A stretch of 64,000 bases of DNA, taken from assembly GCF_056712565.1 (NCBI RefSeq), contig NZ_CM160072.1. One strand, written 5' to 3'. Shown here in pieces: positions 1-38,100 of the stretch. Made by a program: the position numbers and the translations under genes. Each line of letters opens with the position of its first letter. The first letter of the stretch is position 1. The notes below the pieces were generated by a model. That model was not told the DNA's origin, did not search any database, and worked only from the letters and a program-made list of their open reading frames with translations.

Positions 1-1125
1 GTTGGCACCGTTGAAATTGAGGATCTACGGGTTATTCCGGTTATTTTTCTGCCCGGAGTCATGGGTTCAAACCTTATGGATAAGAAAGGAAAATCCATCT
101 GGCGATATGATGACTCTATGAGTCTGATGGGCTGGTCACTACCTACATCAGGACCAAAAGAGAGGAAAAGATTATTGCATCCTGACAGGGTGGAGGTCGA
201 TAATCGTGGGAGAATTCCCGCACCTCCGGATGCCCAAGAAAAACTTATTCAGTTAGGTCAACAATATCCGGAGGACCCATCCGATAAAGAAGCAATGGAT
301 AATTACACTCAGGCAGTACGTGACATTTTGGATAATATAGAGCCAGAAGCGAAATTATTTGGTTCAAGAAAAGATCGCGGCTGGGGAGAGGTTGCAAATG
401 CTAGCTACGGTTCCTTTCTCGATGTATTACAAACAGCATTGTACCGGGACAAACCTACAAAGAAAGGTGAGACGTTAAGTGCGACCTACCAGCAACTACT
501 CGATGTACCTTTGGGTTTGGAGTATGGTCCTGACTCACTTGATGAAGAGTATCTTGAAGTCATAAGGTTGTATCAATTTCCGGTCCATGTCGTTGGCTAT
601 AACTGGCTTGGTTCTAATATGCTCTCAGCAATCAGACTACAAGAACAGATCAAGAAAATTGTTGGAGGCTATCAAAAACGAGGAATGAAATGCCATAAAG
701 TTATTCTGGTTACGCATTCAATGGGAGGACTAGTGGCAAGGTACTTTTCAGAGTGTCTTTCGGGGAATACGGATGTCTACGGTATTGTTCATGGCGTATT
801 ACCATCAATTGGTGCTGCGGCGACATATACCCGAATGAAACGTGGAACTGAAAACCCAGAGTCAAATCCGGAAGGGTATGTTATCAGTCATATCTTAGGT
901 CGTAATGCAGCTGAAATGGTAGCTGTTTTTTCCCAGTCGCCAGGACCAATGGAATTACTACCCATGAATGATTATGGTGAAGAGTGGCTTAATATTGTCG
1001 ATCGTGATGGTAGTACATTAACGCTCCCTAAAAATCTTCCCATTAAAGAAGGTATTGCCCCCGAAGAACGCACCTACGCTGAACTTTATCTAAATAGAGA
1101 AAATTGGTGGATGAGAATCTATTGA
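1..1125 (+). CDS. Lipase-like alpha/beta-hydrolase, putative T6SS phospholipase effector (Tle-like); 5'-partial, N-terminal part
   Basis: Frame is open from base 1 (VGTVEIEDLRVIPVIFLPGVMGS...), so the gene starts upstream of the window. GxSxG nucleophile elbow GHSMGG, Ser codon at 718-720. Stops at 1123-1125. Confidence 0.55.
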   Translation, partial: VGTVEIEDLRVIPVIFLPGVMGSNLMDKKGKSIWRYDDSMSLMGWSLPTSGPKERKRLLHPDRVEVDNRGRIPAPPDAQEKLIQLGQQYPEDPSDKEAMDNYTQAVRDILDNIEPEAKLFGSRKDRGWGEVANASYGSFLDVLQTALYRDKPTKKGETLSATYQQLLDVPLGLEYGPDSLDEEYLEVIRLYQFPVHVVGYNWLGSNMLSAIRLQEQIKKIVGGYQKRGMKCHKVILVTHSMGGLVARYFSECLSGNTDVYGIVHGVLPSIGAAATYTRMKRGTENPESNPEGYVISHILGRNAAEMVAVFSQSPGPMELLPMNDYGEEWLNIVDRDGSTLTLPKNLPIKEGIAPEERTYAELYLNRENWWMRIY

Positions 1126-1718
1126 ATCCTTTTAATACTTCATTAAATCAAAAGCAAATTGATACTGATTGGAATATATATGAAAATTTAATTACTGAGA
1201 GTGTCAATCCATTTCATAAGCAAATTGCTGGAAAATATCATATCAATACTTACTCTTTCTATGGGAGAGCGAAATTGGGAGATATTCCTGAAGCGCATTT
1301 AACGCAGGAAAATGTTCTTTGGAAAGGCTCATTATCAATGGGAAAAAAAAGTGATATATCTTTAGAACCAAAATTCATTGATGGTCGTCTTGATTTAAAT
1401 GAAGTTGGTAACATTAGAACTATTAAGGATGAATTTTCTCCTGAAGAACAGGCGTGGGAAATAAATACTGACGACGGTGATACATATGTTAAGATAGGAC
1501 AGCGTTTTACATTACGAGACTCTTGTGAAAACGGGGATGGTACAGTACCTCTTCGTGCAGGACAAATCGTACACAAGAACATCCTAGAGCGTTTGGCTGT
1601 ACAGGTTTCTCACGAGGCTGCTTATCGAAATCCCGTTAGTCAGGCATTTGCATTACGTTCTATTATAAAAATAGCTCAGGAGGTAAAAAAGGATGGTAAA
1701 ATGTCATACTCTGATTAA
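1104..1718 (+). CDS. C-terminal portion of the same lipase-like protein in the -1 frame (carries candidate Asp and His of the triad); probable frameshift partner
   Basis: Contains ...GDGTVPLRAGQ... and ...VSHEAAYRNP... downstream of the Ser motif. This frame opens right after a stop at 1095-1097, only about 25 nt before the upstream ORF ends. Confidence 0.4.
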   Translation: MVDENLLNPFNTSLNQKQIDTDWNIYENLITESVNPFHKQIAGKYHINTYSFYGRAKLGDIPEAHLTQENVLWKGSLSMGKKSDISLEPKFIDGRLDLNEVGNIRTIKDEFSPEEQAWEINTDDGDTYVKIGQRFTLRDSCENGDGTVPLRAGQIVHKNILERLAVQVSHEAAYRNPVSQAFALRSIIKIAQEVKKDGKMSYSD

Positions 1719-3251: not shown

Positions 3252-3512
3252 ATGCCTGGGATCGTTTGTTTAGGTGATGCCACGACTCATGGTGGTAAGG
3301 TGATTACCGCAACTTCAACGCTTTTTATCAATGGCATTCAGGTAGCTCTCGTAGGTGATCTGGTTTCCTGCCCAAAGCACGGCGTGAATCCCATACAAGA
3401 AGGTGACCCGACAGCGACGGAAAAAGGTCGTAATGTCGTTGTTAATCATTGCCAATGTGCATGTGGCTGTAGGGTTATCAGTTCTCAACCAGAAAATAGT
3501 ATCGAGTCATAA
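3252..3512 (+). CDS. Small PAAR-like protein (about 86 aa), candidate T6SS spike-tip protein
   Basis: RBS GAGG before ATG 3252. Gly/Cys/His-rich pattern (CLGDATTHGGKVI...VALVGDLVSCPKHG...HCQCACGC) typical of PAAR. The ORF track start at 3177 is probably too far upstream. Confidence 0.55.
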   Translation: MPGIVCLGDATTHGGKVITATSTLFINGIQVALVGDLVSCPKHGVNPIQEGDPTATEKGRNVVVNHCQCACGCRVISSQPENSIES

Positions 3513-3513
3513 T

Positions 3514-4650
3514 ATGGGATGGCCTGTACCCGATATTCCAGAAAGAAAAATGCTACCTGAGCCTGTTTATCGACGCTGGATTATATTATTAATATCTATG
3601 TTAACAGTTGGTACTCTGTTTATTTTATCGGTCTGGAATTCTGCGACATACTGGGATATTTTTATTTATGGCGTTCTGCCAATGCTGTTTCTTTGGCTAT
3701 GTTTGTTTGGTATTGCGCTGAACAAATATGAACAATCCGTTGCAGCCTGTATAAGTTGGGAGTCTGAAAGACAACAAGTTAAACAACTCTGGCAACACTG
3801 GAGCCAAAAACAACTGGCAATAGTTGGGAATGTTCTTTTTACACCGGAAGAAAAAGGCATGAGTGTTTTACTGGGGCCACAGGAAGAGATCCCTGCATAT
3901 CCTAAAAAGGCACGACCGTTATTCTCTGCATCCCGTTATTCTCTTTCGTCTATATTCCATGATATTCACCAGCAACTGACACAACAATTTCCTGATTATC
4001 GTCATTATCTACATACTATCTACGTATTACAGCCTGAGAAATGGCGTGGAGAAACCGTGAGACAGGCTATTTTCCATCAATGGGACTTAGTACCTGAACG
4101 GACCAATACTCTTAATCAAATCCAGTCTCTTTATGATGAAAGATTTGACGGTCTAATTCTGGTTGTTTGTTTACAAAACTGGCCGGAGAATAAACCTGAA
4201 GATACGAGTGAACTGGTATCAGCACAGCTTATCTCCTCATCGTCATTTGTACGGCAGCACCAGATACCCGTTATTGCTGGTCTGGGGCGTGTAATGCCAT
4301 TAGAACCCGAGGAGTTGGAGCATAATCTGGATGTGTTATTTGAATATAACCAATTGGATAACAAACAACTACAGCATGTCTGGGTCTCTGGTTTAGATGA
4401 GGGAACGATAGAAAACCTTATGCAGTATGCTGAACAACATCAATGGTCACTTCCTAAAAAACGGCCCCTACACATGATTGATCATTCCTTTGGCCCTACA
4501 GGAGAGTTTATTTTTCCTGTCTCTCTGGCAATGCTGTCAGAGGCTGCCAAAGAAACTGAACAAAATCATTTAATTATCTATCAGTCAGCACAGTATGCTC
4601 AGAAAAAGAGCCTTTGCCTGATTACCCGGAAGCTTTATTTAAGGACATGA
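3514..4650 (+). CDS. Inner-membrane protein of unknown function (N-terminal TM segments plus cytoplasmic domain), encoded between PAAR and tssM
   Basis: ATG 3514 lies 1 nt after the PAAR stop. Hydrophobic segments RRWIILLISMLTVGTLFILSVW and IFIYGVLPMLFLWLCLFGIAL. Track start at 3403 would overlap the PAAR gene. Confidence 0.5.
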   Translation: MGWPVPDIPERKMLPEPVYRRWIILLISMLTVGTLFILSVWNSATYWDIFIYGVLPMLFLWLCLFGIALNKYEQSVAACISWESERQQVKQLWQHWSQKQLAIVGNVLFTPEEKGMSVLLGPQEEIPAYPKKARPLFSASRYSLSSIFHDIHQQLTQQFPDYRHYLHTIYVLQPEKWRGETVRQAIFHQWDLVPERTNTLNQIQSLYDERFDGLILVVCLQNWPENKPEDTSELVSAQLISSSSFVRQHQIPVIAGLGRVMPLEPEELEHNLDVLFEYNQLDNKQLQHVWVSGLDEGTIENLMQYAEQHQWSLPKKRPLHMIDHSFGPTGEFIFPVSLAMLSEAAKETEQNHLIIYQSAQYAQKKSLCLITRKLYLRT

Positions 4651-8013: not shown

Positions 8014-9616
8014 ACTGTTGCAAAAGCTGACCCGTAGCTGTTTTGCCGACCGGGATGCACTGGATGTGGCGCGAACACAGGCGGCGCTGTGGCAGACATG
8101 GCTGCTGCCGGTGACGGCAGACACGCCGGTCGGGGAAGACCCCGGCTACCACGACGATTTCCTGCGTATACGCGACGAAATGAACAAACTTTCCGGCACA
8201 GATACCGGCCTTATCTGCCAGCTTGCCGAATCCCTGCTGCTGACGCAGGCCAAAGACGTGCGCATCGCCACTTACTACATCTGGGCGCGACTGCACCGCG
8301 ACGGTGAGCGCGGACTGGCGGAAGGACTGGCGCTGCTGACCGGACTGGTGGAACGCTTCGGTACGCAACTGCTGCCCTCGCGTCCGGCCAGCCGGAAAAT
8401 GGCGCTGGAGTGGCTGGCAGGGGAAAAGATGCTCGACAGCCTTGCCCGCTACCCGGAAGTGGCAAAAGAGGATTTTGCGAACATTGTTGCCGCTCTTAAT
8501 CAACTGACGGTTTCCTTCACTGCATGGCCCGAAGACCAGCATTCCCCCTCCCTGATGCCACTGATTAACGCGCTGGAATCACGTCTGGCGCAGTCGGGCG
8601 GGATGAACGCGGTGGTGCCGCAAAACAGCAGCAGCGTTACTGCACCGTCATCCCCGGTGGATGCGCCACAGGTACAGACCATCACCTCCGGGCGTGACCT
8701 GCTCGACCAGGCGAAAGTGCTGGCCCGTTATCTGAACGAACAGCCGCAGGGCTGGCTTTCGGCGCACCGGCTGATGAAAACCCTGCGCTGGGACACGGTG
8801 CATGAACTGCCGCCGGATGTGGACGGCAAAACCCGGCTGGCCCCGCCGCGCACCGAGTCACGCAACCAGCTTAAGCGGCTGTATGCCCAGCAGAACTGGA
8901 CGGAACTGCTGGAGCAGGCCGACCTGATGTTCAGCACCGGCGTCAGCCATTTCTGGCTGGATATCCAGTGGTATCTGCATCAGGCGCTGACTAAGGCGGG
9001 CGTACCGTGGGACAGGTGGACAGCTGTTATCCGTCAGGACCTGGCGTTACTGCTGGAACGCCTGCCAGGGCTGGAAAATCTGGCATGGAACGACGGCACG
9101 CCGTTCGCCGATGAGGTGACGCGCAACTGGATAGCGCAGCAGGTCATGATGCGGGAAGACGGCGCATGGCTTGCGGGGAAAGCCGCTGTACCGACAGACG
9201 ACGCCACAAATGACGTACTGGCGCTGGAGCCGGAAGCACTGGCGATGGCAGACAGTCAGGGCGTGGAAGCGGCGCTGGGCTGGATACAGACCCGTCCGGG
9301 CATCACCACGGCACGACAGCGCCTGTTATTGCGACTGCTGATGGCGCGGGTGGCGGAACAGTACGGTAAAAACGAGATGGCGCTCCTGCTGCTGGAAGAA
9401 CTGGATACCGCCGCACAGGGAATAACGCTGACGCAGTGGGAGCCAGAACTGCTGTTTGAAGTAAAAGCCCGGCAACTGAAACTGCTGCGTCTGCGGGCGC
9501 ACCGCTATGCGGATAAAGCCCTGCTGAACCGAAAAATGGAAATCCTGCTGGGAACGCTGGTGGCAATCGATCCGGCACGGGCAGCGGTACTGTGTGATAC
9601 GCAACATAAGGACTGA
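8006..9616 (+). CDS. tssA: TssA (ImpA N-terminal domain protein)
   Basis: ImpA_N-like signature ...PVGEDPGYHDDFLRIRDEMNKL...IATYYIWARL...GLALLTGL. ATG 8006 overlaps the tssM stop (ATGAGTGA); alternative in-frame starts at 7979 and 7991. Confidence 0.75.
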   Translation: MSELLQKLTRSCFADRDALDVARTQAALWQTWLLPVTADTPVGEDPGYHDDFLRIRDEMNKLSGTDTGLICQLAESLLLTQAKDVRIATYYIWARLHRDGERGLAEGLALLTGLVERFGTQLLPSRPASRKMALEWLAGEKMLDSLARYPEVAKEDFANIVAALNQLTVSFTAWPEDQHSPSLMPLINALESRLAQSGGMNAVVPQNSSSVTAPSSPVDAPQVQTITSGRDLLDQAKVLARYLNEQPQGWLSAHRLMKTLRWDTVHELPPDVDGKTRLAPPRTESRNQLKRLYAQQNWTELLEQADLMFSTGVSHFWLDIQWYLHQALTKAGVPWDRWTAVIRQDLALLLERLPGLENLAWNDGTPFADEVTRNWIAQQVMMREDGAWLAGKAAVPTDDATNDVLALEPEALAMADSQGVEAALGWIQTRPGITTARQRLLLRLLMARVAEQYGKNEMALLLLEELDTAAQGITLTQWEPELLFEVKARQLKLLRLRAHRYADKALLNRKMEILLGTLVAIDPARAAVLCDTQHKD

Positions 9617-21121: not shown

Positions 21122-22701
21122 CAGTATATCCCCATATAGTTATCCATATCCCGACGCAGGGCGATGACTTTAGTGCCGATAATGACTTGTAGGGTATTTT
21201 GATCAAGTTTAACAACCGCAATCCCGCCAGCTCTTTTTATTGCAACTTCGTCAATCAATCCCATATCTGCGATTGTTAAACGTAAACGAGTTACGCAATT
21301 ATCCAGTGACTTAATATTCTCTTTACCACCAAGTGCCTTAACCATCTGCTCCGCCGCTTGCAGCTCTGATTTATCAGGAGTTGGGATATCCGCTATAGCC
21401 GTATCTTCGTGAACGTTCAGCGTGACAGGATTGGACTCTTCACGGCCTACGGTCATCAGGTTAAATTTAAGAATGGTCCAACGGAACACAAAGTAATAAA
21501 TGAAGAAATAGGCCACTTCGACACACACCGCGATCGGCCAACCTGTTCTTGTGCCACGCAATACGCCAAAGCTAATAAATTGAATCAGATCGCCAGTAAA
21601 TCCCATCTTCACGCCCATATATGGCAGAACCATGTTAGCGAATCCATTCATAAAGGCATGGAAGACAAACAGCAGTGGACTGACAAATAAGAACAGAAAC
21701 TCAATCGGTTCGCTGACGCCGCCAATAATCACCGTAAGCACCCCGGAAATAAGCAATGCTTTGATAGCCTTTCTGTTTTGAGCATGAGCAGTGCGATACA
21801 TCGCCAGCGCGGCACCAGCCAGACCATACTGAATCATCAGTTTGCCCTGCTCCATTTTCCCCGCCAAATCCAGCGGAATGACCGCATTCTCTTTAACGTA
21901 TGCCATAAACATGTTCAGGGTGCCGTAATATTCTTCGCCGCCAATCACAGCCGAACCGCCGATTGGCGTAAAGCGGAAAACTGACGTCACCAGATGGTTT
22001 AAGCCAAAAGGAATCGTCACACGTTCGGCAACTGCATAGAAGAAATAACCAACAGGACCGGAAGTTGAAATCCAGTGTCCAATGAGCATGAAAAGATTGA
22101 AAAACGGCGGCCAGATAAAAGGAATGATCAGACCAAATCCACTCATCACAATCAGTGTAATGATAGGCACCAGACGTGGGCCGCTATAAAAACCTAATGA
22201 TTCTGGAATGCGTAAATTAACGATCTTTTTATACATGCTGGCGACTAATAACCCAGCAACAATTCCCCCCAACACGCTGGTATTGTAGGACTGGATCCCC
22301 AGAATGATGGTTTGCCCATGTGTCGACATTTGGTCAGCAACGACCAATAAGTCGTGCTGTTTAAGATAAAAGTTCGTTCCCAGATGCATCGCCATAAAAC
22401 CAATTAAGCCAGAAAAAGCACCATAGGCTTTATCCTCTTTATCTTTTAATAATCCTAAGGGAATCGCTATCGCAAACAATACAGGTAAATTAACAAAGGC
22501 AAACAAACCAAGACTAACAATGAAATCAAGTATGGTTTTAATTATTGGAATAGCCAGAAATGGAATTAACTTTGCCATATCATCACTGGCTAAACCACTT
22601 CCCAGCCCTAGCATCATGCCACATACACTTAGCAGAGCAATGGGATACATAAATGCCTTCCCCAGGCTCTGAAAAAAACTCCAGGCTTTCTTTTGTTTCA
22701 T
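21121..22701 (-). CDS. PTS EIICB component, glucose/maltose family (526 aa)
   Basis: Multi-TM EIIC domain and C-terminal EIIB domain with the phospho-cysteine motif NCVTRLRL. Confidence 0.8.
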   Translation of the reverse strand: MKQKKAWSFFQSLGKAFMYPIALLSVCGMMLGLGSGLASDDMAKLIPFLAIPIIKTILDFIVSLGLFAFVNLPVLFAIAIPLGLLKDKEDKAYGAFSGLIGFMAMHLGTNFYLKQHDLLVVADQMSTHGQTIILGIQSYNTSVLGGIVAGLLVASMYKKIVNLRIPESLGFYSGPRLVPIITLIVMSGFGLIIPFIWPPFFNLFMLIGHWISTSGPVGYFFYAVAERVTIPFGLNHLVTSVFRFTPIGGSAVIGGEEYYGTLNMFMAYVKENAVIPLDLAGKMEQGKLMIQYGLAGAALAMYRTAHAQNRKAIKALLISGVLTVIIGGVSEPIEFLFLFVSPLLFVFHAFMNGFANMVLPYMGVKMGFTGDLIQFISFGVLRGTRTGWPIAVCVEVAYFFIYYFVFRWTILKFNLMTVGREESNPVTLNVHEDTAIADIPTPDKSELQAAEQMVKALGGKENIKSLDNCVTRLRLTIADMGLIDEVAIKRAGGIAVVKLDQNTLQVIIGTKVIALRRDMDNYMGIY

Positions 22702-22732
22702 GTGGGTTATCTCATATAAATGTTATATATAA

Positions 22733-23557
22733 TTAGTCCATTAATACTTTGGTACGAATAGAGAGATATAATTTTTCTTCTAAAATTAATTCATATTTAA
22801 AAGTGGCATACAGATACCGTTCAATTTCATGAATTGCGCGCTGTAACAGGATGTCCTTTTCAAGAAACTGTTCATAGATATCACCAATATCTTTCTGTTT
22901 TATTTTTTCATTGCATAACACGCGACTTGAAAAATATTTAAGGTGCATCATAAATCTGGAATAGTTAAATGAACTTCTGTCCACCTTTCTGTTATAAACA
23001 ACTTCAATAAGCTCCGTGATTATTTGCGACAACTCAATAATCCGTACTGATTCATAATCAACTGAATTTTCATAATTATTTAAAATATGCAATGCTATAA
23101 AACCAATCTCATCATCAGGAAGTTGAACGCTGAATTGCTCATTAATGATAGTTAATGCATCGCGACTTATCGCATACTCTGCTTTGTACAACGCTTTGAT
23201 TTCATCAAGGAAAACATTATTAATTTGTATACCTGAAACGACTCGGGATATTGCATTCGAAATGTGATCCGCAAGAATCAATAGTAGCGATGGATTGAGA
23301 TTTTTTTCGAGATTTTTCTCCGCATATTGCACTATTTTTTCGGCAACAAACACATACTCAATATCTACATGTTCAATCAATTTATAAAGTTTGTTTTTTT
23401 GTTCATTTCTGACATAAAAAATCCGGTTAGCCGGATGCTCAGGGACCGACATTCCATATTTTTTGTTGTAACCGACGCCAGGCCCAGAAATGATAACCTC
23501 CTGTCCATTCATCGATGCCTGTACACAATTATTGTTCATGACTTTTTCGATGATCAT
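22733..23557 (-). CDS. BglG/LicT-family transcription antiterminator (CAT RNA-binding domain plus two PRDs)
   Basis: N-terminus MIIEKVMNNNCVQASMNGQEVIISGPGVGYNKKYG resembles the CAT domain of BglG/LicT. The start is moved in from the track ORF because a terminator/RAT leader lies immediately upstream. Confidence 0.75.
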   Translation of the reverse strand: MIIEKVMNNNCVQASMNGQEVIISGPGVGYNKKYGMSVPEHPANRIFYVRNEQKNKLYKLIEHVDIEYVFVAEKIVQYAEKNLEKNLNPSLLLILADHISNAISRVVSGIQINNVFLDEIKALYKAEYAISRDALTIINEQFSVQLPDDEIGFIALHILNNYENSVDYESVRIIELSQIITELIEVVYNRKVDRSSFNYSRFMMHLKYFSSRVLCNEKIKQKDIGDIYEQFLEKDILLQRAIHEIERYLYATFKYELILEEKLYLSIRTKVLMD

Positions 23558-23568
23558 TCCATGGCTCC

Positions 23569-23642
23569 AAAAAAAAAGGCAAGGCACGTCAGAAGTAATA
23601 ACTACTTCAAACATTGCCTTGCCTGATTTAACAGTTACAAGA
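23569..23642 (-). promoter_or_regulatory. RAT-like sequence overlapping a leader terminator (PRD-antiterminator attenuator)
   Basis: On the minus strand, cttgtaactgttaaatcaggcaaggca resembles the bgl RAT (ttgttactg...caggcaaaacc). It overlaps the 5' arm of a hairpin (ggcaaggca / tgccttgcc, inner gaagta/tacttc) that is followed by 9 U, 12 nt before the ATG. Confidence 0.55.
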
Positions 23643-23814
23643 TGATTAACTAATGCGTATACATTACACGGAATTGTGCTTAATTAAAGAGATGGTCGGC
23701 TTATTTTTCAAGCCGACATTCAAATATCCGACATCAGTCACAAAACCAGCGTCTAATATTCAGGTAAATGTTATCTATTCAACGAAATATAAATTCATTG
23801 AATAAATAAAAACA

Positions 23815-25068
23815 TTATCCCCTTCTCGCCAGCGTCGCCCCATCGGCAAAATACGCTTTAATTCCCGCAAGAATAGACTCCGCAACTTCCTGCTGGAAAG
23901 TCGCCGTTTTCAGTTTACGCTCTTCCTCAACGTTACTGATAAACGCCGTTTCGACCAGAATGGAGGGAATATCTGGTGCCTTTAGTACGGCAAACCCGGC
24001 CTGTTCAACTTGATTTTTATGCAGCTTGTTGATTTTACCGAGCTTATTCAGCACCGCTTTACCAAACTTAAGGCTGTCGGCAATGGTCAGCGACTGCACC
24101 ATATCGAACATGGTGTGGTCGACATAGCGGTCACCGCTTTTGCTTACGCCACCAATCAAGTCCGAGGCGTTCTGGGTTTGTGCCAGATATTTTGCCGCAG
24201 TACTGGTTGCGCCTTTGGTTGAGAGCGCAAACACCGAGGAACCGCTCGGCTGGCGACTGGTAAAGGCGTCGGCATGGATAGAAACAAACAAGTCAGCGCG
24301 CTGTTTCTGGGCTTTTGCTACGCGCACTTGCAACGGAATGAAGATGTCTTCATTGCGCGTCATGTACACCTTCATATTGCCCTCTTTCTCGATCAGAGAG
24401 CGCAGACGGCGAGCTATTTGCAATACCACGTCTTTTTCGCGCGTTTTGTATTTCCCCACCGCACCGGAGTCTTCGCCACCGTGGCCAGGGTCAAGCATAA
24501 TGACAATCGGACGATCCCGCCCAGCTTTACCCGGTTGTGGACCACTTTGTGCTGGCGGCACCTGCTTTTCGAGGTCGCCTTTGTTGTAATCCTCCAGCAG
24601 CGCCAGCAGCGGGTCCTGCATATCCTGTGCATTGGCCGGATAGAGGTCCATCACCAGACGCTCTTTAAACCCGGCGACCGGCGCAAGGGCAAACAGCTGC
24701 GGTTTTACGTTTTGCTTTAATTCAAAAACCATACGTACGGTTTGCGGGTCAAATTGCCCGACGCGCGCCGACTTGATGAACGGGTCGTCAGCGCGGATTT
24801 GCGCAGCCATCCCCTTGAGCACCGAGTTCAGGTTTACATCTTCGATATCCACCACCACGCGTTCAGGATTACTCAACGCGAACTGCTTATATTTCAGCTG
24901 ACGATTTGATTCTACCGTCACGCGGGTGTAGCTGGACGCAGGCCAGACGCGCACCGCCACGACCTGGCTGACCGCAGCCAGGCTGACCTGACTTACGCTC
25001 AATAGCCACATGGCACCCGCGCCTTGCAGTAAACGACGACGGCTGATTGCAGTGTTGGATCCTGACAT
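23815..25068 (-). CDS. amiC: N-acetylmuramoyl-L-alanine amidase AmiC (Tat signal)
   Basis: Translation starts [23 protein letters not shown] (twin-arginine signal) with an amidase_3 C-terminal domain. The track ORF carries a 30-codon N-terminal extension. Confidence 0.93.
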
Positions 25069-26692: not shown

Positions 26693-28519
26693 TTATCCCC
26701 GTGAACTAAACAACGCCGCCAGACCACTGCGCCGCTCAGTACGAGTGGCGATTGCCGCACTTAATATGCGCTCATCGGCATACAGCGACAGACGGCGACG
26801 CGCGCGGGTCACCGCGGTGTAAACCAGCTCTCGCGTTACTACCGGCGTGCGTTGACTCGGTAAAATCAACGCCGCATGGTCGAACTCCGATCCCTGCGAT
26901 TTATGTACCGTCATCGCCCACGTCGTTTCGTGCTCTGGCAGGCGACTCGGTTGCACAGACTTAATATTGCCGTCCGGCATCGCAAACCAGACGCGCGTCC
27001 CCTGCCCGCGATCCAGCGCAATACCAATATCGCCATTAAACAACCCAAGCGCGCTGTCATTACGGGCAATCATCACCGGTCGGCCTTCGTACCAACGAGA
27101 GTGCGGATGACGATGAATTTTGCGCTTCTGTTGCATAAACTGCTCAATTCGCTCATTCAGTCCAGCCACGCCAAACGGCCCTTCCCGCAGGGCGCACAAA
27201 AGCTGGTACTCATTGAACGCCTGAATGATTAAATCCGGCTCGGCACGCGCTTGCAGCAGATCCAGATAACGTCCGTAACCCGCAAGAGCTTCCTCAAGCA
27301 TCGCAATATAATCTTCGCCGCTCTGTAAAAGTCGTTTTTCGATATCAGTAAAATCCTGCTGAAAAACGGTTTTCACTGCCGTTTTATCACCACGGTTAAT
27401 CGCCGCAGCTAACTGACCAATGCCAGAATCGCTGCCGAAACGATAGCTTTTTTGCAGCAGGCAGAGGCTGTCGCGCAAAGATGCCGCTTCTGTGCCAGTT
27501 CCTGCTGGAACGTGGCTTCCCGTCAGGCGGCTCAACTGCCCGGCACGCTCGGCGGTAAAGCCCGCGTTGGCATAAGCGCAGATATCGCCCAGCACAGCCC
27601 CAGCCTCAACCGAGGCCAGTTGATCACGATCGCCGAGAAAGATCACTCGCGCATGATCGGGCAAGGCGTCGATCAGTCTCGACATCATAGGAAGATCGAT
27701 CATTGACGCTTCATCTACCACCAGCACATCAAGATGCAGCGGGTTACCGGCATGATGACGTAAACGCTGGCTACCCGGCTGCGCACCCAGCAATCGGTGC
27801 AAAGTGCTGGCATCTTCCGGAATGCGTTTCTTTTGTTCATCGGTCAGCGGTAATTGTCGCAAAGCCTTGCCGAGAGATTCGGTTAAGCGCGCGGCAGCTT
27901 TACCCGTTGGTGCAGCCAGACGGATACGGCAGCGTTCGCCGTCGGCCATCTGAATTAAGGCTGCCAGCAACTTCGCTACGGTGGTCGTTTTACCGGTGCC
28001 AGGACCGCCGGAAATCACCGAAATCCGCCGCGTCAGCGCCACTGCCGCCGCAACTTTTTGCCAGTTAATTTCATCGCTTACTGGAAAAAGTTTGTCCAGG
28101 GTTTGCGCCAGTAGAGCTTCATCAACCTCAATGGCATGATTCACTTCGTTGAAAAAGCGTGCCACTGTGCGCTCGTTACACCACATGCGATTCAAATAAA
28201 GACGATCGCCACAGAGGATCATCGGCGTTGGTTCATCTCCCCGGCTGACCGCTTGTGAAGCCAGCAAGCATTCTTCCCAATTTTGTAGTTCACCGATTTC
28301 ACTGACACAGGTCGCCAACAGCGGATGCGATGCCTCGTTATTTTCCAGTCGTGAAAGCGGCAAACAAACGTGTCCCTCTCCGGCATCATGACTTAATAGT
28401 GCCGCCGCGAGGGTGACGGCAGGATGTTCATCTCCCGCCACGGTCAGGGCAAACTGCACGTCCAGCGGGCGTAGCTGTTTGTGCTCCACAGCTTCCAGTA
28501 ATTGCTTTTGCAATTTCAT
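26693..28519 (-). CDS. recD: RecBCD exonuclease V subunit RecD (608 aa)
   Basis: Walker [11 protein letters not shown]. Length and gene order. Confidence 0.95.
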
Positions 28520-31500
28520 TACGCCTCCTCCAGGGTCATACTGGCAAACATCTCATCCATCAGGTCAATCAACCCGGCGTTGGGTCGGGTCGCGTAGATC
28601 CCTTGTTGCGGATGTTCTTTATCAACGCCACGCAGGAACAGATAAATAACGCCGCCAAAGTGGCGCTCATAGTCGTAATCAGCAATACGATGGCGCAGAT
28701 AACGGTGCAGCGCCAGGGTATAAAGCTGATATTGCAGATCATAGCGGTGTGCCTGCATTGCCGCTGCCATAGCCTGTTGGGTGTAAGCCGAACTGTCTTC
28801 ACCCAACCAGTTGGATTTATAGTCGAGCAGGTAATAACGCCCTTCGTGGCGGAACACCAGATCGATAAAGCCTTTTAACATGCCACGTACCTGCATGAAC
28901 TCCAGCGGCGGGCAGCCAGCGGATAGCGGGTCAAACTGGCGAATTAGTGCATCAAGCTGGCTGGCGATAAGCGGTTCACTAATCGGCAGGTAAAACTCCA
29001 TCTCCACCTGTTTATCGCGATCGGAAAGCTGATTCAGGCTAACACCCGTTTCATTGAGAGGTGCCTGGAGGACAGCCGTGATCCACTCAGTCAACACCAG
29101 TTCCCACTGCGGTTCAAAGCCACCGAGCTCCAGTTTTTCCTGTACCCAGTTCGGGTCAATCGGCTGGGTAAAATCGAGGTCTTCAAACAAACTGTGCAAG
29201 AATGTCCCCGGTGACGCACCGCGCGGGAACTGATGCGGTGTTAACGTCGGTTCTTCAACGACGCTGACCACGCCTGCGGCATCAACATCCAGCCGTGGCA
29301 TCAGATCCTGAGCGATACCGTGACCACGCTGCTGCAAACCGGAGTAGCTGGTGACACGCCAGTTATCGCCGGGCAATCGTTGTAGCGTCCTCGCATTCAG
29401 TTCTGCAGTTAATGCATCATTAACCTGCCAGGGCTGGTTATCACCAATTTGTGCCGTTTGCCAGGCAATATCATCATTGCACAACGCTTCAATACAGGTA
29501 CGAAGCCCTGCCGCATCTTGCGGTTCTCCTTTTTGCAGCAAACGCCCGAGCGCACTTTGGTGGACGTCGGTATCACCTTTTTTATCGCCACGACGGCGCA
29601 CCAGCGGTGCAACGCCGAGACTGCAATGCCAAACCGAACGCGTCAGCGCCACGTAAAGCAAACGCAGATCTTCCGCCAGACGTTCGGCCTCCGCGAGGTC
29701 GACGCTTTCTGGCGCAGCATTAAGATCCAGAACGGCCTCAAACGAGTGGCGATCGTGATAAAACGCCTGATCCTGGACGCGGAAATTGGTAATAAATGGC
29801 AACCAGACCAGCGGATATTCCAGCCCTTTTGATTTGTGTATCGTGACAATCTGCACCAGATGTTTATCACTTTCGAGGCGCATTTGTTGGCTGGAGGCAT
29901 TACTGTCTGGCTCGAGGATATGTTGCGATAACCAGCGTACCAGCGCATGTTCACTTTCCAGCTGCGTTCCGGCTTCTTGTAGCAGTTCGCTGATATGCAA
30001 GATATCGGTAAGACGCCGCTCACCGCCTGCCGTTGCCAGCAAGTTTTCTGCAATGTTACGCGCCGACATCAGCGCCCGCAGCATCGGCATAACGCCACGT
30101 TTGCGCCAGATTTGCCGATAACCATCGAACTCTTCGACGACCGCATCCCACGCATGTTCGTCATTATTCAGCGTTTCAATATCCAGCGCATTCAGCCCCA
30201 TCATTGACGTTGCCAGCGCACTGCGCAGGGTGTTCTCACGTTCGGGCGTCATCACCGCCTGCAACAGCCAAAGCATCTCCTGTGCTTCCAGAGTTTCAAA
30301 AACACTGTCGCGGTTCGAAAGGTAAACGGAAGGGATTTCCAGCAGCGTTAAGGCATCGCGCACCTGAGCGGCCTCCTGGCGGCTGCGCACCAGCACACTG
30401 ATGTCCGAAGCACGCACCGGACGCGCATCGTCGCCGTTCATCAGCAACGCTTCGCCGCGTTGCCCGGCTTGTAGCCAGTCGCAGATTTGCGCAGCACATA
30501 CCTGCGCCATGGTACTTTGATAGTCGCCAACGCCGCAGCTTTCGCCTTCCATCAGCCACATTTTCATCGCAGGCTGCGTTTCACCTTTAAATACAAAACG
30601 TAACGCCTGATTTTTGCCGGCAGATTTCACAGGAATAAACGGTATTTCACGAAACATGAACGCGTCATCAGTCTGGCTGAAAAGTTTGTTAACGCTGTTC
30701 ACCATTCCCGGTGCGGAACGCCAGTTGGTATCTAAGGTGTAGTGAGCATGAACTTCGCTACGCGCCTTCATATAAGTGAAGATATCCGCACCCCGGAATG
30801 CATATATGGCCTGTTTCGGGTCGCCAATCAGCAACAATGCGGTTTCCGGCTGATGGTGCCAGATACGGCGAAAAATTCGATACTGTTGGGGGTCGGTATC
30901 CTGAAATTCATCGATCATTGCCACCGGGAATCGCGTACGGATCGCCGCTGCCAATACCTCGCCGCTTTCACTACGCAGCGCGGAATCGAGCCGACTTAAC
31001 ATGTCATCAAAACCCAATTCGCCACGGCGGCGTTTTTCACGCGCTACTGTTTCGCGGATCTCAGCCAATGCGCGAGTGATCACCAGATCGCGGATCGACA
31101 ATGGTTCTGCAAGCAGTTGATCGATCGCCTCAAACAGTGGATGTCGCGGGGTTTCCCCCCCGGCTTTCGTGCGATCTTCTAAGAAACGCTGAGAGAATTT
31201 TTCCAGCGACTCCGGCAACTGATAGCTGTTGGTCTCTTCTTCTGCCCAGGCGCTGATCTTCTCGATCCATTTAGCCTGATTGCTACGGTTAAACTTGCGT
31301 CGATCAATACCAGAAGATTCGATCAGCGCATCCAGTTCACCCACTGCGTCGCGCCACTGCTGTTTTACGGCATCAATACGCGCCACAATTTGCGCGTGGC
31401 GGGAAGCCAGCGTTTCATCATCGGGGGGCGGTGCTTTGATAACCGGCGCTTCGCCTTGCAGATAACGATTAATATCGCGCAGCAACGCCTGCGGCCCTTT

Positions 31501-35117: not shown

Positions 35118-38100
35118 TCATGACTGATTAAAGCGAAACAGCGGTAACAGGAAACGTTGCGACTGTTCAACGATAGCCTCCATTGTCTCTGGTGTTAATT
35201 GCCGCCAGAGCCGTTGATACCAGATATCATCACCTTCGCCACGCACCATCATGTTGCCTTCGTAAGCCTGAAGGAATTTCGTACGGGCTTTTTGCAACGT
35301 GGAATCGTCATCCAGCATGGCATCGTTTTGCGCGTCATAACAGGTTTTTAGCCACGCGCCGCCACTTTCAGGTAACACCAGCAATGGCGCGGACATTCCT
35401 TCACGATACCCCTCAATCAGTTGTGAGAGGTAATGCAAAGCCTGTTCGGCTGCAAGCGGCGGAAAACGCCACTCGCCGTCTTTGCGTAGAAAAAGGCGAC
35501 TTTCACCATTACCACCGCTGGCACAGTAGACAAGGTGTTCCAGCCAAAGTTGCATTCCCTGCGCCACACTTAATAAAGAGGGACGCCAGCGCAACAGGCC
35601 ATCCGGCTGCACCTGCGGCAACCAGCCAGTTATCTGCACACCGTTGCAGGCGAGATCAATCTCCATACTCTGCCCTGGCTGGCGACAGGCAATGACTCTG
35701 TCGGCAAGTTGCTGCATCTCCTGACACTGCGTTTCCCAGAAAATTTCACCAAAGGCACCATACGGCAAATCACCTGCCGCCCGGAATCGGCGGAACAAGC
35801 GTTCGGCATCATCCTGCTCAACCAGTACATTTAATAACTGCTGGTTGATTTGATAACGACTAAGCCCTTCAAGAATAAAAGGTTCAGTGTCGGGAATTTC
35901 GCTGTCTTCGGTACGGAAGTTCACCTGCAAACGCATCTGGAAAAACGCCCGCACCGGATGTGCCCAGAATCGTTGTAGCGTTTCCAGCGGCACGGTTTCC
36001 GGTAAGGTAAACGGCAGCGGCTGAACAAATTCAGAATGTGCTTTACCAGCCTGGCTGGCCGCAGGTAGCCACTCGCGCGCATAGCTTTGTAAGTTACCGG
36101 GCTGGTAGTTTTGCGGGTCAAACGGCATCCGGGTATGGTGGCAAGTAAGATGCGCTTTTACCCTTGCCTCGCTTTCATCACAGTTAAGCGCTTCATCGCC
36201 CGGTAGATAATGGCTTTGCCCGATGTAGTCGATCAGTTCCTGCACCAGTACCGACGGGAAACGTTCACTGTTATCCTGAATGGAACGCCCGATATAGCTG
36301 ATATAGAGTTTTTGCTGCGCGGAAATTAACGCTTCCAGGAACAGATAGCGGTCGTCATCGCGACGGCTACGGTCGCCACGCTTCGGTTTCTGGCTCATCA
36401 GATCAAAGCCCAATGGCGCAAGCTGACGTGGATAAACGCCGTCGTTCATTCCCAGCAGGCAAACCACTTTGAACGGAATTGAACGCATTGGCATCAGAGT
36501 ACAAATGTTAACCGGTCCGGCGAGAAAACGCTGGCTGATACGTTCTTGATCCAGGCGCAGTGCCAGTTCATCACGCAATAGTGACAGCGGCACCGCGTCG
36601 CCATACTGCGCGCCTAAACCTTCGGAGATAATCGCCTGCCATTGTTGTTCGATCAGCGTCATCGCCGCTTCGGTTTCCGCATCCGGCAGGAAAAAGGCGT
36701 TGAGCATATCGCGACAAACCGGCAACCACTCTTCCAGCGGACGCTCCTGCGCCAGCCCGCGACGCCAGATATTTAGCTGCATTAGCAGTGAAGCCAGATG
36801 CCCCACCAGTTCTGCAATTAAGCCGCTCGATTCATCATAAGGTAGAACCGATTGCCACTCGCCCTGCGCGCTCTCCATCGCGTAGCCCAGCAACATGCGC
36901 GTCAGGCCAAACCGCCAGGTGTGTTGACCGGTAGCGGGAAGTTCCAGCTCGCGAACGTTGTCGTCATCTATCCCCCAACGAATGCCGGATTCGTTGACCC
37001 ACTGACGTAAATAACGCAGCCCTTCTTCGGTGATGTCAAACCGCGCTGCCAGCACCGGCACATCCAGTAATGCCAGCACGTCTTCCGACACAAAGCGGCT
37101 GTCTGGCAGCGATAACAGGCTGATAAACGCTTCAAGTACAGGATGCGACTGCCGCGCCCGACGGTCGGAAATGGCGTAAGGCAGGTAACGATCCGCAGGT
37201 GCACTACCAAACACAGCCTGAATAAACGGACTGTAGCTGTCGATATCAGCCACCATCACGATGATGTCGCGCGGAGTAAGTGTCGGGTCTTCCTCCAGCA
37301 TCGCCAGCAGGCGATCGTGTAAAACTTCAACTTCACGCTGCGGGCTATGGCAAACGTGGAAGGTGATACTGCTATCCAGTGGATCAAGCGGGCGTTTGTT
37401 ATCGCTACGGGAAAACTCTTCGATGTTCACACCAGCAACGGCGCGGTTTTCCAGTTCCAGAATGTCAGACTGAATATTATGCAGCAGGTTATCTGGCGTC
37501 ACATCGACAAAAGCGTCCAGCTCCTGGCTGCTCTCCAGGTCAGAAAGGAGATAAATGTAGTCGCGCCCAAGCTTGCCCCATGAAGCCAGCAGCGGGTTGC
37601 CGACATCCTGTTCACCATCGCTGTTAAAGAGCTGCCCGGCATTTTCGCTGTCGCGAAATAGCGGTAATTCGCGATCTTCAAAACTGTGTCGGCGCTGGCG
37701 AGTCAGTAGTTTCGCCAGATAAGCGGGATCTTTAATGTCGCCCCAGTAATAACGGCAGGGGTTGGTAAACAGGAGATGGATTTCAATATGTTTACCCAGC
37801 GCCTGTAGCGCCTGGAGATAAACAGGCGGTAACGCGGAAATACCGCATATAAAGACGCGCGAAGGTAACCCCGGCGGGCAGGTCGTCGCGGACTCCAGCG
37901 TTTCGATAAAGCGCTGATAGAGATTGGCGCGGTGCCAGCGCGGTTGCCCAAGTTCGTCGGTATATTCCACCAACGCCTTCCACAACGGCGCTTGCCAGGC
38001 CTGTGCTTCTCCCAACCCTTCTACCAGATGTCCTGTTTCCCACTGTGCCAGCCAGTCCGGACGATAGACCAGATACTGGTCAAACAGGTCCGCCGCTTTT

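Follow-up and report, generated by a model that had tools for sequence, protein, structure and literature searches.

Within the 64,000-nucleotide stretch of contig NZ_CM160072.1 (RefSeq assembly GCF_056712565.1) analysed here, hereafter the window, the first 1,718 bases carry the motifs of a lipase-like T6SS effector in two different reading frames. This raises the question of whether the locus represents an inactivated effector gene, a sequencing error, or a gene that needs a frameshift for its expression, the three options offered in a preliminary description of the sequence.

On the plus strand, frame 1 meets no stop between base 1 and a TGA at 1123–1125, and its translation contains KVILVTHSMGGLVARYF. 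Frame 3 has a TAG at 1095–1097 and is then open to 1718, with a translation that contains ENGDGTVPLRAG and VQVSHEAAYRN. The first of these ORFs (1–1125, +; WP_001350751.1, named ‘esterase/lipase family protein’ in RefSeq) includes the nucleophile elbow THSMGG (712–729, +; codon of Ser254 at 718–720), which was read from the sequence and is the same in 4R1D_A. The second (1098–1718, +; WP_001331599.1, ‘hypothetical protein’) includes GDGTVP with the candidate catalytic Asp530 (1533–1550, +; Asp codon 1536–1538) and the His555-Glu556 pair with the candidate catalytic His (1611–1616, +; His codon 1611–1613). The ORFs overlap by 28 nt (1098–1125), and RefSeq annotates both as ordinary CDSs with no pseudogene label. 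The preliminary description had placed exactly both the ORF that ends at 1125 with the Ser motif and the -1 frame ORF that follows the stop at 1095–1097 and carries GDGTVP and VSHEAAY. What it gave as GHSMGG, however, reads THSMGG, as in P. aeruginosa Tle4.

Comparison with an intact orthologue, which had been proposed as a check, placed the lesion at a 10-bp repeat. The same region in E. coli UTI89 is 10 bp longer and comprises one 1770-bp gene encoding 589 aa (WP_000204766.1 / YP_542179), in the same locus, where vgrG-tle4-tli4-PAAR is flanked by mltA/tRNA-Met and the core genome. Over 1718 bases the window and UTI89 are 99.4% identical, the entire difference being one 10-bp unit. Relative to this gene, the window edge cuts the left end of the 5′ fragment: tle4 begins 42 nt upstream of base 1, which corresponds to codon 15 of the UTI89 orthologue, so that the ATG at 61 falls within the gene. 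The 5′ fragment codes for residues 15–384 of the intact protein followed by an out-of-frame MRIY and a stop; from the native start, reading gives RENWW, then MRIY and the stop, for a product of 388 aa. This product includes Ser254 and lacks Asp530 and His555, both of which are encoded in the -1 frame. The 3′ fragment covers residues 385/386–589, such that the two ORFs jointly encode the whole intact protein except for one or two junction residues (K385, perhaps L386). With one unit instead of two, the window thus has 388-aa and ~203-aa pieces in place of UTI89 Tle4, and the Ser-Asp-His triad, which lies on one polypeptide in the two-copy allele, is divided between them.

When rejoined, the protein is a Tle4-family lipase, as judged from sequence searches and a structural model. 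Pfam returned weak matches for the intact effector at the nucleophile elbow only (PGAP1, 6e-06; LCAT, 0.007), and an NCBIfam scan of the effector, both fragments, and the Tli4 pieces found no family at E <= 0.01; the family was therefore assigned by PDB sequence and fold searches. A phmmer search of the PDB matched residues 9–88 and 138–460, two stretches that span the junction, to 4R1D_A (P. aeruginosa Tle4 in complex with Tli4) at E = 4e-44. The AlphaFold model of the intact (UTI89) protein has a mean pLDDT of 89.7 and a pTM of 0.89, and its best PDB match in Foldseek is again 4R1D_A (E = 5.9e-33; TM 0.67/0.76; 28% identity over 605 columns). In these analyses the rejoined protein has the fold of an alpha/beta-hydrolase, with inserted cap segments of the Tle4 type. 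The lipase family assignment envisaged for the fused translation could thus be made by PDB sequence and fold, and it is specifically to Tle4.

P. aeruginosa Tle4/TplE (PA1510) has the identical THSMGGLVAR elbow and a Tli4-type partner with Tli4_N and Tli4_C domains; however, it is only ~28% identical to the E. coli protein, and the copy in the window is disrupted. The next fold matches, LPLA2 (lysosomal phospholipase A2) and LCAT, follow far behind. These and PGAP1-like alpha/beta-hydrolases account for the next-best fold matches and the weak Pfam signal at the elbow, but with TM scores of 0.3–0.5, 10–14% identity, and no T6SS association. The Tle/Tli system of Enterobacter cloacae was also considered; it involves another family of lipases and has no bearing on tle4. 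The locus shows the context of a Tle4-family gene, with a vgrG neighbour, a cognate Tli4 gene, and a surrounding T6SS cluster. The ExPEC/APEC gene has already been named Tle4 with the UTI89 accession cited (PMC6730261; also PMC9860674), and the passages of these two papers concerned with Tle4 of ExPEC/APEC T6SS-1 cite Ma et al. (2014, 2018) and Journet and Cascales (2016). The effector gene is therefore already known, as Tle4 of ExPEC T6SS-1, and the lesion is an ordinary, lineage-restricted one.

The lesion itself differs from the one that had been proposed. The description of the locus as a lipase-like T6SS effector split by a frameshift holds for the split and for the effector; the cause, however, is not a single-base indel in the interval 1098–1122 but the loss of one unit of a perfect two-unit tandem repeat. 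A +1 or -2 change within 1098–1122 would re-fuse the frames on paper only. The single remaining unit, AAATTGGTGG, forms the deletion junction (1101–1110, +), as identified by alignment and by Tandem Repeats Finder, which reports a repeat in UTI89 with a period of 10, 2.1 copies, and a 100% match. In the alignment, the doubled unit, AAATTGGTGGAAATTGGTGG, is present in UTI89, in the ST95-type 729_021014_1_4, and in the more divergent bR_120_Kylling, while a single AAATTGGTGG is present in the window and in CEA212U. The doubled unit codes for N-W-W-K-L-V-D and is read in two different codon registers, and thus is a chance repeat within coding sequence.

To count copy number, a 100-base probe across the junction was matched to 135 complete E. 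coli genomes. The two-copy form was present in 73 of these (68 identical to it and five slightly divergent), and the remaining 62, which fell in the identity band expected for a 10-base gap and include the window allele, were one-copy. One-copy genomes include APEC O1, S88, ATCC 11775, ExPEC XM, and the EV36 lineage, and nearly all one-copy alleles are identical to one another. Likewise, bases 1–2600 of the window are 100% identical to many B2/ST95-type genomes (APEC O1, S88, ExPEC XM, EV36 lineage). Since the same lesion recurs in 62 complete genomes, it is an inherited allele, and a sequencing error, as one of the options originally offered, is excluded: these genomes are independent and extend from the older references APEC O1 and S88 to many later assemblies. 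A sequencing or assembly artefact has nothing in its favour except the general expectation that some frameshifts are errors, and a 10-bp difference that lies outside a homopolymer and is identical in genomes from many laboratories makes its probability practically nil.

Searching databases with the intact protein yielded 2552 matches, and nearly all of the 120 listed were single proteins covering at least 92% of the query. We aligned the intact protein with 25 homologues of 525–654 aa (26 sequences in total) from Klebsiella, Serratia, Yersinia, Photorhabdus, Enterobacter, Gilliamella, Herbaspirillum, Rhodanobacter, and others. Invariant positions in this alignment comprise W383 and W384 at the junction, T252–R261 (THSMGGLVAR), G529–P534 (GDGTVP), and H555–E556; the break separates the elbow motif from the GDGTVP and HE motifs. 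In the phmmer alignment with P. aeruginosa Tle4, the match crosses the junction unbroken, with NRENWWKLVDEN paired with NT-TWYGLVPEQ. Collectively, the single-ORF homologues, the invariant WW at the junction, and the unbroken alignment indicate that the two-copy, single-ORF state is ancestral and that the window allele is a derived deletion. The two-frame layout is not conserved, given that a single ORF is found in 73 of the 135 near-identical alleles and in each of the 25 distant homologues in the alignment, and no lineage with a two-gene arrangement of tle4 was seen among the homologues retrieved.

We consider it very likely that bases 1–1718 of the window are the T6SS-1 phospholipase effector gene tle4 of a B2/ST95-type E. 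coli, and that a 10-bp deletion has inactivated the gene and left an ordinary pseudogene. An inactivated effector is thus the best supported of the options first put forward. Direct tandem repeats typically lose a unit through replication slippage or short-homology recombination. The ancestral tle4 would have carried a chance perfect repeat, AAATTGGTGG-AAATTGGTGG, encoding the conserved N-W-W-K-L-V-D, and one unit would have been lost, most simply by replication slippage or by recombination between the units. Translation would then stop four codons past Trp384, yielding the 388-aa fragment with Ser and without Asp and His. As no lipase with the full triad would be made, the effector is proposed to be non-functional.

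A layout in which the 3′ ORF lies in the -1 frame and shares a 28-nt overlap with the 5′ ORF could alternatively reflect programmed -1 ribosomal frameshifting or transcriptional slippage within 1098–1122, yielding some full-length Tle4, and such recoding would account for the activity published for strain XM. However, the 12 in-frame heptamers between 1089 and 1128 include no slippery X XXY YYZ site, and homopolymers in the ORF overlap reach at most AAAA (4). No stable structure was predicted downstream, where bases 1108–1207 fold at -11.9 kcal/mol (z = +0.22 relative to shuffles). A slip at the sole A-run would delete the invariant WW, and the layout represents a recent derived deletion that is absent in both close and distant orthologues. 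The suggestion that the gene needs a frameshift for expression therefore finds no heptamer, no stimulatory structure, and no orthologue with a two-frame layout to sustain it, and we regard programmed recoding as very improbable.

Although also unlikely, a functional split effector merits more weight. Under this explanation, the Ser fragment and the Asp/His fragment would assemble non-covalently into an active lipase delivered by VgrG, with translation of the 3′ fragment initiating or re-initiating at TTG 1104 or GTG 1107, a short distance ahead of the upstream stop. The overlap of the ORFs at 1098–1125 keeps all residues except K385 and perhaps L386, and the secondary structure of the model places beta-strands on both sides of the break, which would be consistent with a fold shared between the pieces. 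However, the candidate starts at TTG 1104 and GTG 1107 have only GAG (3 nt) as a Shine-Dalgarno sequence, compared with 7 nt for tli4. Moreover, the break falls at a pLDDT of ~93, between a helix ending at residue 377 and a short helix at 389, and hence in a confidently modelled non-helical segment that contains the invariant WW and is not a flexible linker. The retrieved homologues include no two-gene lineage, and further lesions gather in some one-copy strains.

A further point in favour of a split effector comes from strain XM. The Tle4/Tli4 pair was reportedly defined first in TW-XM, in a paper by Ma and co-workers from 2014. Ma et al. (2018) reported that APEC XM/TW-XM kills its own tle4-tli4 double mutant in a manner dependent on Tle4 and Hcp1, and that Tle4 is detected and secreted in this strain (PMC5874247). 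Phospholipase A1 activity and T6SS-dependent delivery are likewise literature claims for strain XM (PMC5874247). A later paper uses CP025328, ‘ExPEC XM’, as the APEC XM reference; the strain was a gift from C. Lu, one of the authors of Ma et al. In this genome (NZ_CP025328.1), tle4 is one-copy (WP_001350751.1 and WP_001331599.1) and tli4 is split, such that Tle4-dependent antibacterial activity has been published for a strain whose genome has the split allele.

Several explanations may account for this conflict. The split genes may retain some activity; the sequenced clone may differ from the experimental stock; or the phenotype may have another basis, such as the 525-aa PAAR protein with its uncharacterised C-terminal region. 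Weighing against a split effector, Ma et al. (2018) give no sequence check of the laboratory stock, and the review that includes APEC Tle4 (PMC6730261) cites a UTI89 accession for it. Because of the XM conflict, we nonetheless retain a small probability for a functional split effector. That split tle4, and perhaps split tli4 too, still works, be it as a reassembled secreted lipase or through unconventional recoding, is on the whole doubtful; if true, tle4 would be a naturally split T6SS effector, and the killing by XM would be explained. A survey of literature on ST95, T6SS, and frameshift retrieved no description of the tle4 lesion.

The lesion consists of a change in repeat-unit number, and its two states are nearly equal in frequency (73 versus 62). 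We therefore considered reversible phase variation, in which a 10-bp copy number of two or one would switch the effector on or off. When ~40 kb surrounding tle4 in APEC O1, S88, and XM (one copy) were aligned with UTI89 and IMT5155 (two copies), no SNP besides the indel separated the groups, which would be compatible with a switching locus; the other point differences in these five ~40-kb haplotypes were each private to one strain. (A search with a 25-kb query to rank relatives gave matches dominated by core genome.) However, there are just two units, a single unit cannot slip back, and reversion would need a precise 10-bp duplication. Nor did we find a tract that gains as well as loses units and varies within a strain: the three assemblies of UTI89 agree on two copies, the five from the EV36 lineage agree on one, and the identity bands of the 135 genomes include no three-copy alleles, only the states two and one. 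Phase variation is, in our estimation, even less probable than programmed recoding.

Inactivation of tle4 by deletion, the reading that we favour, is placed in a broader setting by the adjacent immunity gene. The intact 364-aa Tli4 of bR_120_Kylling has the Pfam domains Tli4_N (4.8e-19) and Tli4_C (2e-12); a PDB sequence search with it gave no match at E <= 1. By comparison with this intact gene, the frame of tli4 in the window is lost after residue 261 through a one-base insertion near 2480, inside Tli4_C. The result is an N-terminal fragment of 277 aa (1693–2526, +), with Tli4_N and the first part of Tli4_C, and a C-terminal fragment of 97 aa (2495–2788, +), with the rest of Tli4_C. The start of tli4 overlaps the end of tle4 by 26 nt (1693–1718) and has, 8 nt upstream, a ribosome-binding site that is a perfect AGGAGGT. 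A 13-bp near-tandem repeat (AGGAGGTAAAAA x1.9) in the 3′-terminal part of tle4, at window positions 1678–1701, spans this ribosome-binding site. The frameshifted tli4 had been overlooked in the earlier reading of the tle4 split.

The tli4 insertion is carried by 129 of the 135 genomes, UTI89 and further strains whose tle4 is intact among them, and a single 364-aa tli4 by only six. The presence of the insertion in strains with intact tle4 suggests that it is probably older than the tle4 deletion, an order that follows from the nesting of the two lesions rather than from a tree. As tli4 was already frameshifted in nearly all genomes with the allele, the loss of tle4 would be a later step of decay and not a case of regulated recoding. 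Together, the distributions of the two lesions point to a decaying effector-immunity pair in ST95-type E. coli, in which the immunity gene was probably lost first and the toxin second. Such a sequence would make the locus a small, clean case of stepwise effector-immunity decay in one clonal complex.

These lesions have consequences for annotation and for experimental work. A broken tle4 is carried by 62 of the 135 complete genomes with the ExPEC allele, where RefSeq lists it as two ordinary genes. With tli4 frameshifted in 129 of the 135, the choice of strain matters for T6SS-1 competition studies, and APEC XM, the model strain for Tle4/Tli4 activity, has both lesions in its reference genome.

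Related strains exhibit further damage to tle4. In three genomes with one-copy alleles (AH21I008, ESBLEC_HM50, and OZ547099), ISEc52 is inserted in the 5′ fragment. In the one-copy strain CEA212U, the 3′ fragment is shortened by a further 22 bp and truncated (4107–4565 of the extracted locus). Some two-copy alleles have 1-bp frameshifts, one of which is flagged as ‘frameshifted’ by RefSeq.

Outside tle4, two other strains of the ST95 complex show damage: ISEc12 adjoins a truncated tssM in APEC O1 (28056–30358 of the extracted locus), and in IMT5155 tssK is frameshifted, tssJ is interrupted by a stop codon, and IS66 occupies the usual site of the small PAAR gene (9339–10674, 22258–24873, and 37062–37598 of the extracted locus). 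The core T6SS-1 genes damaged in these strains look intact in the window, going by how the near-identical ATCC 11775 is annotated.

The window differs from the reverse complement of ATCC 11775 (NZ_CP033092.2, 982561–1046560) at only eight positions in 64 kb (6419, 9833, 10270, 11329, 23138, 41242, 49898, and 58920), and thus comes from a very close relative and not from ATCC 11775 itself. Upstream of tle4, the T6SS-1 cluster comprises tssB, tssC, tssK, tssL, an OmpA-family gene, hcp, tssH, and vgrG (DUF2345). Downstream are tli4, a small PAAR-domain gene (3252–3512, +) that, according to the annotation, closes the vgrG-tle4-tli4-PAAR module, a hypothetical gene, tssM, tssA, and the 525-aa PAAR protein. 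These are followed by tssF, tssG, tssJ, tssE, and a VasL-domain gene, and then by core genes that include amiC, argA, and recBCD, among others. The 525-aa protein (window 9622–11199) has an N-terminal PAAR domain (Pfam, 1.1e-08, residues 10–66), and its remaining ~450 residues gave no match in Pfam. Two small ORFs lie behind it (~11274–11828 and 12085–12528), one of which is DUF1240 in the annotation of S88. The 525-aa PAAR protein and these small ORFs may comprise a second effector-immunity module of the same T6SS.
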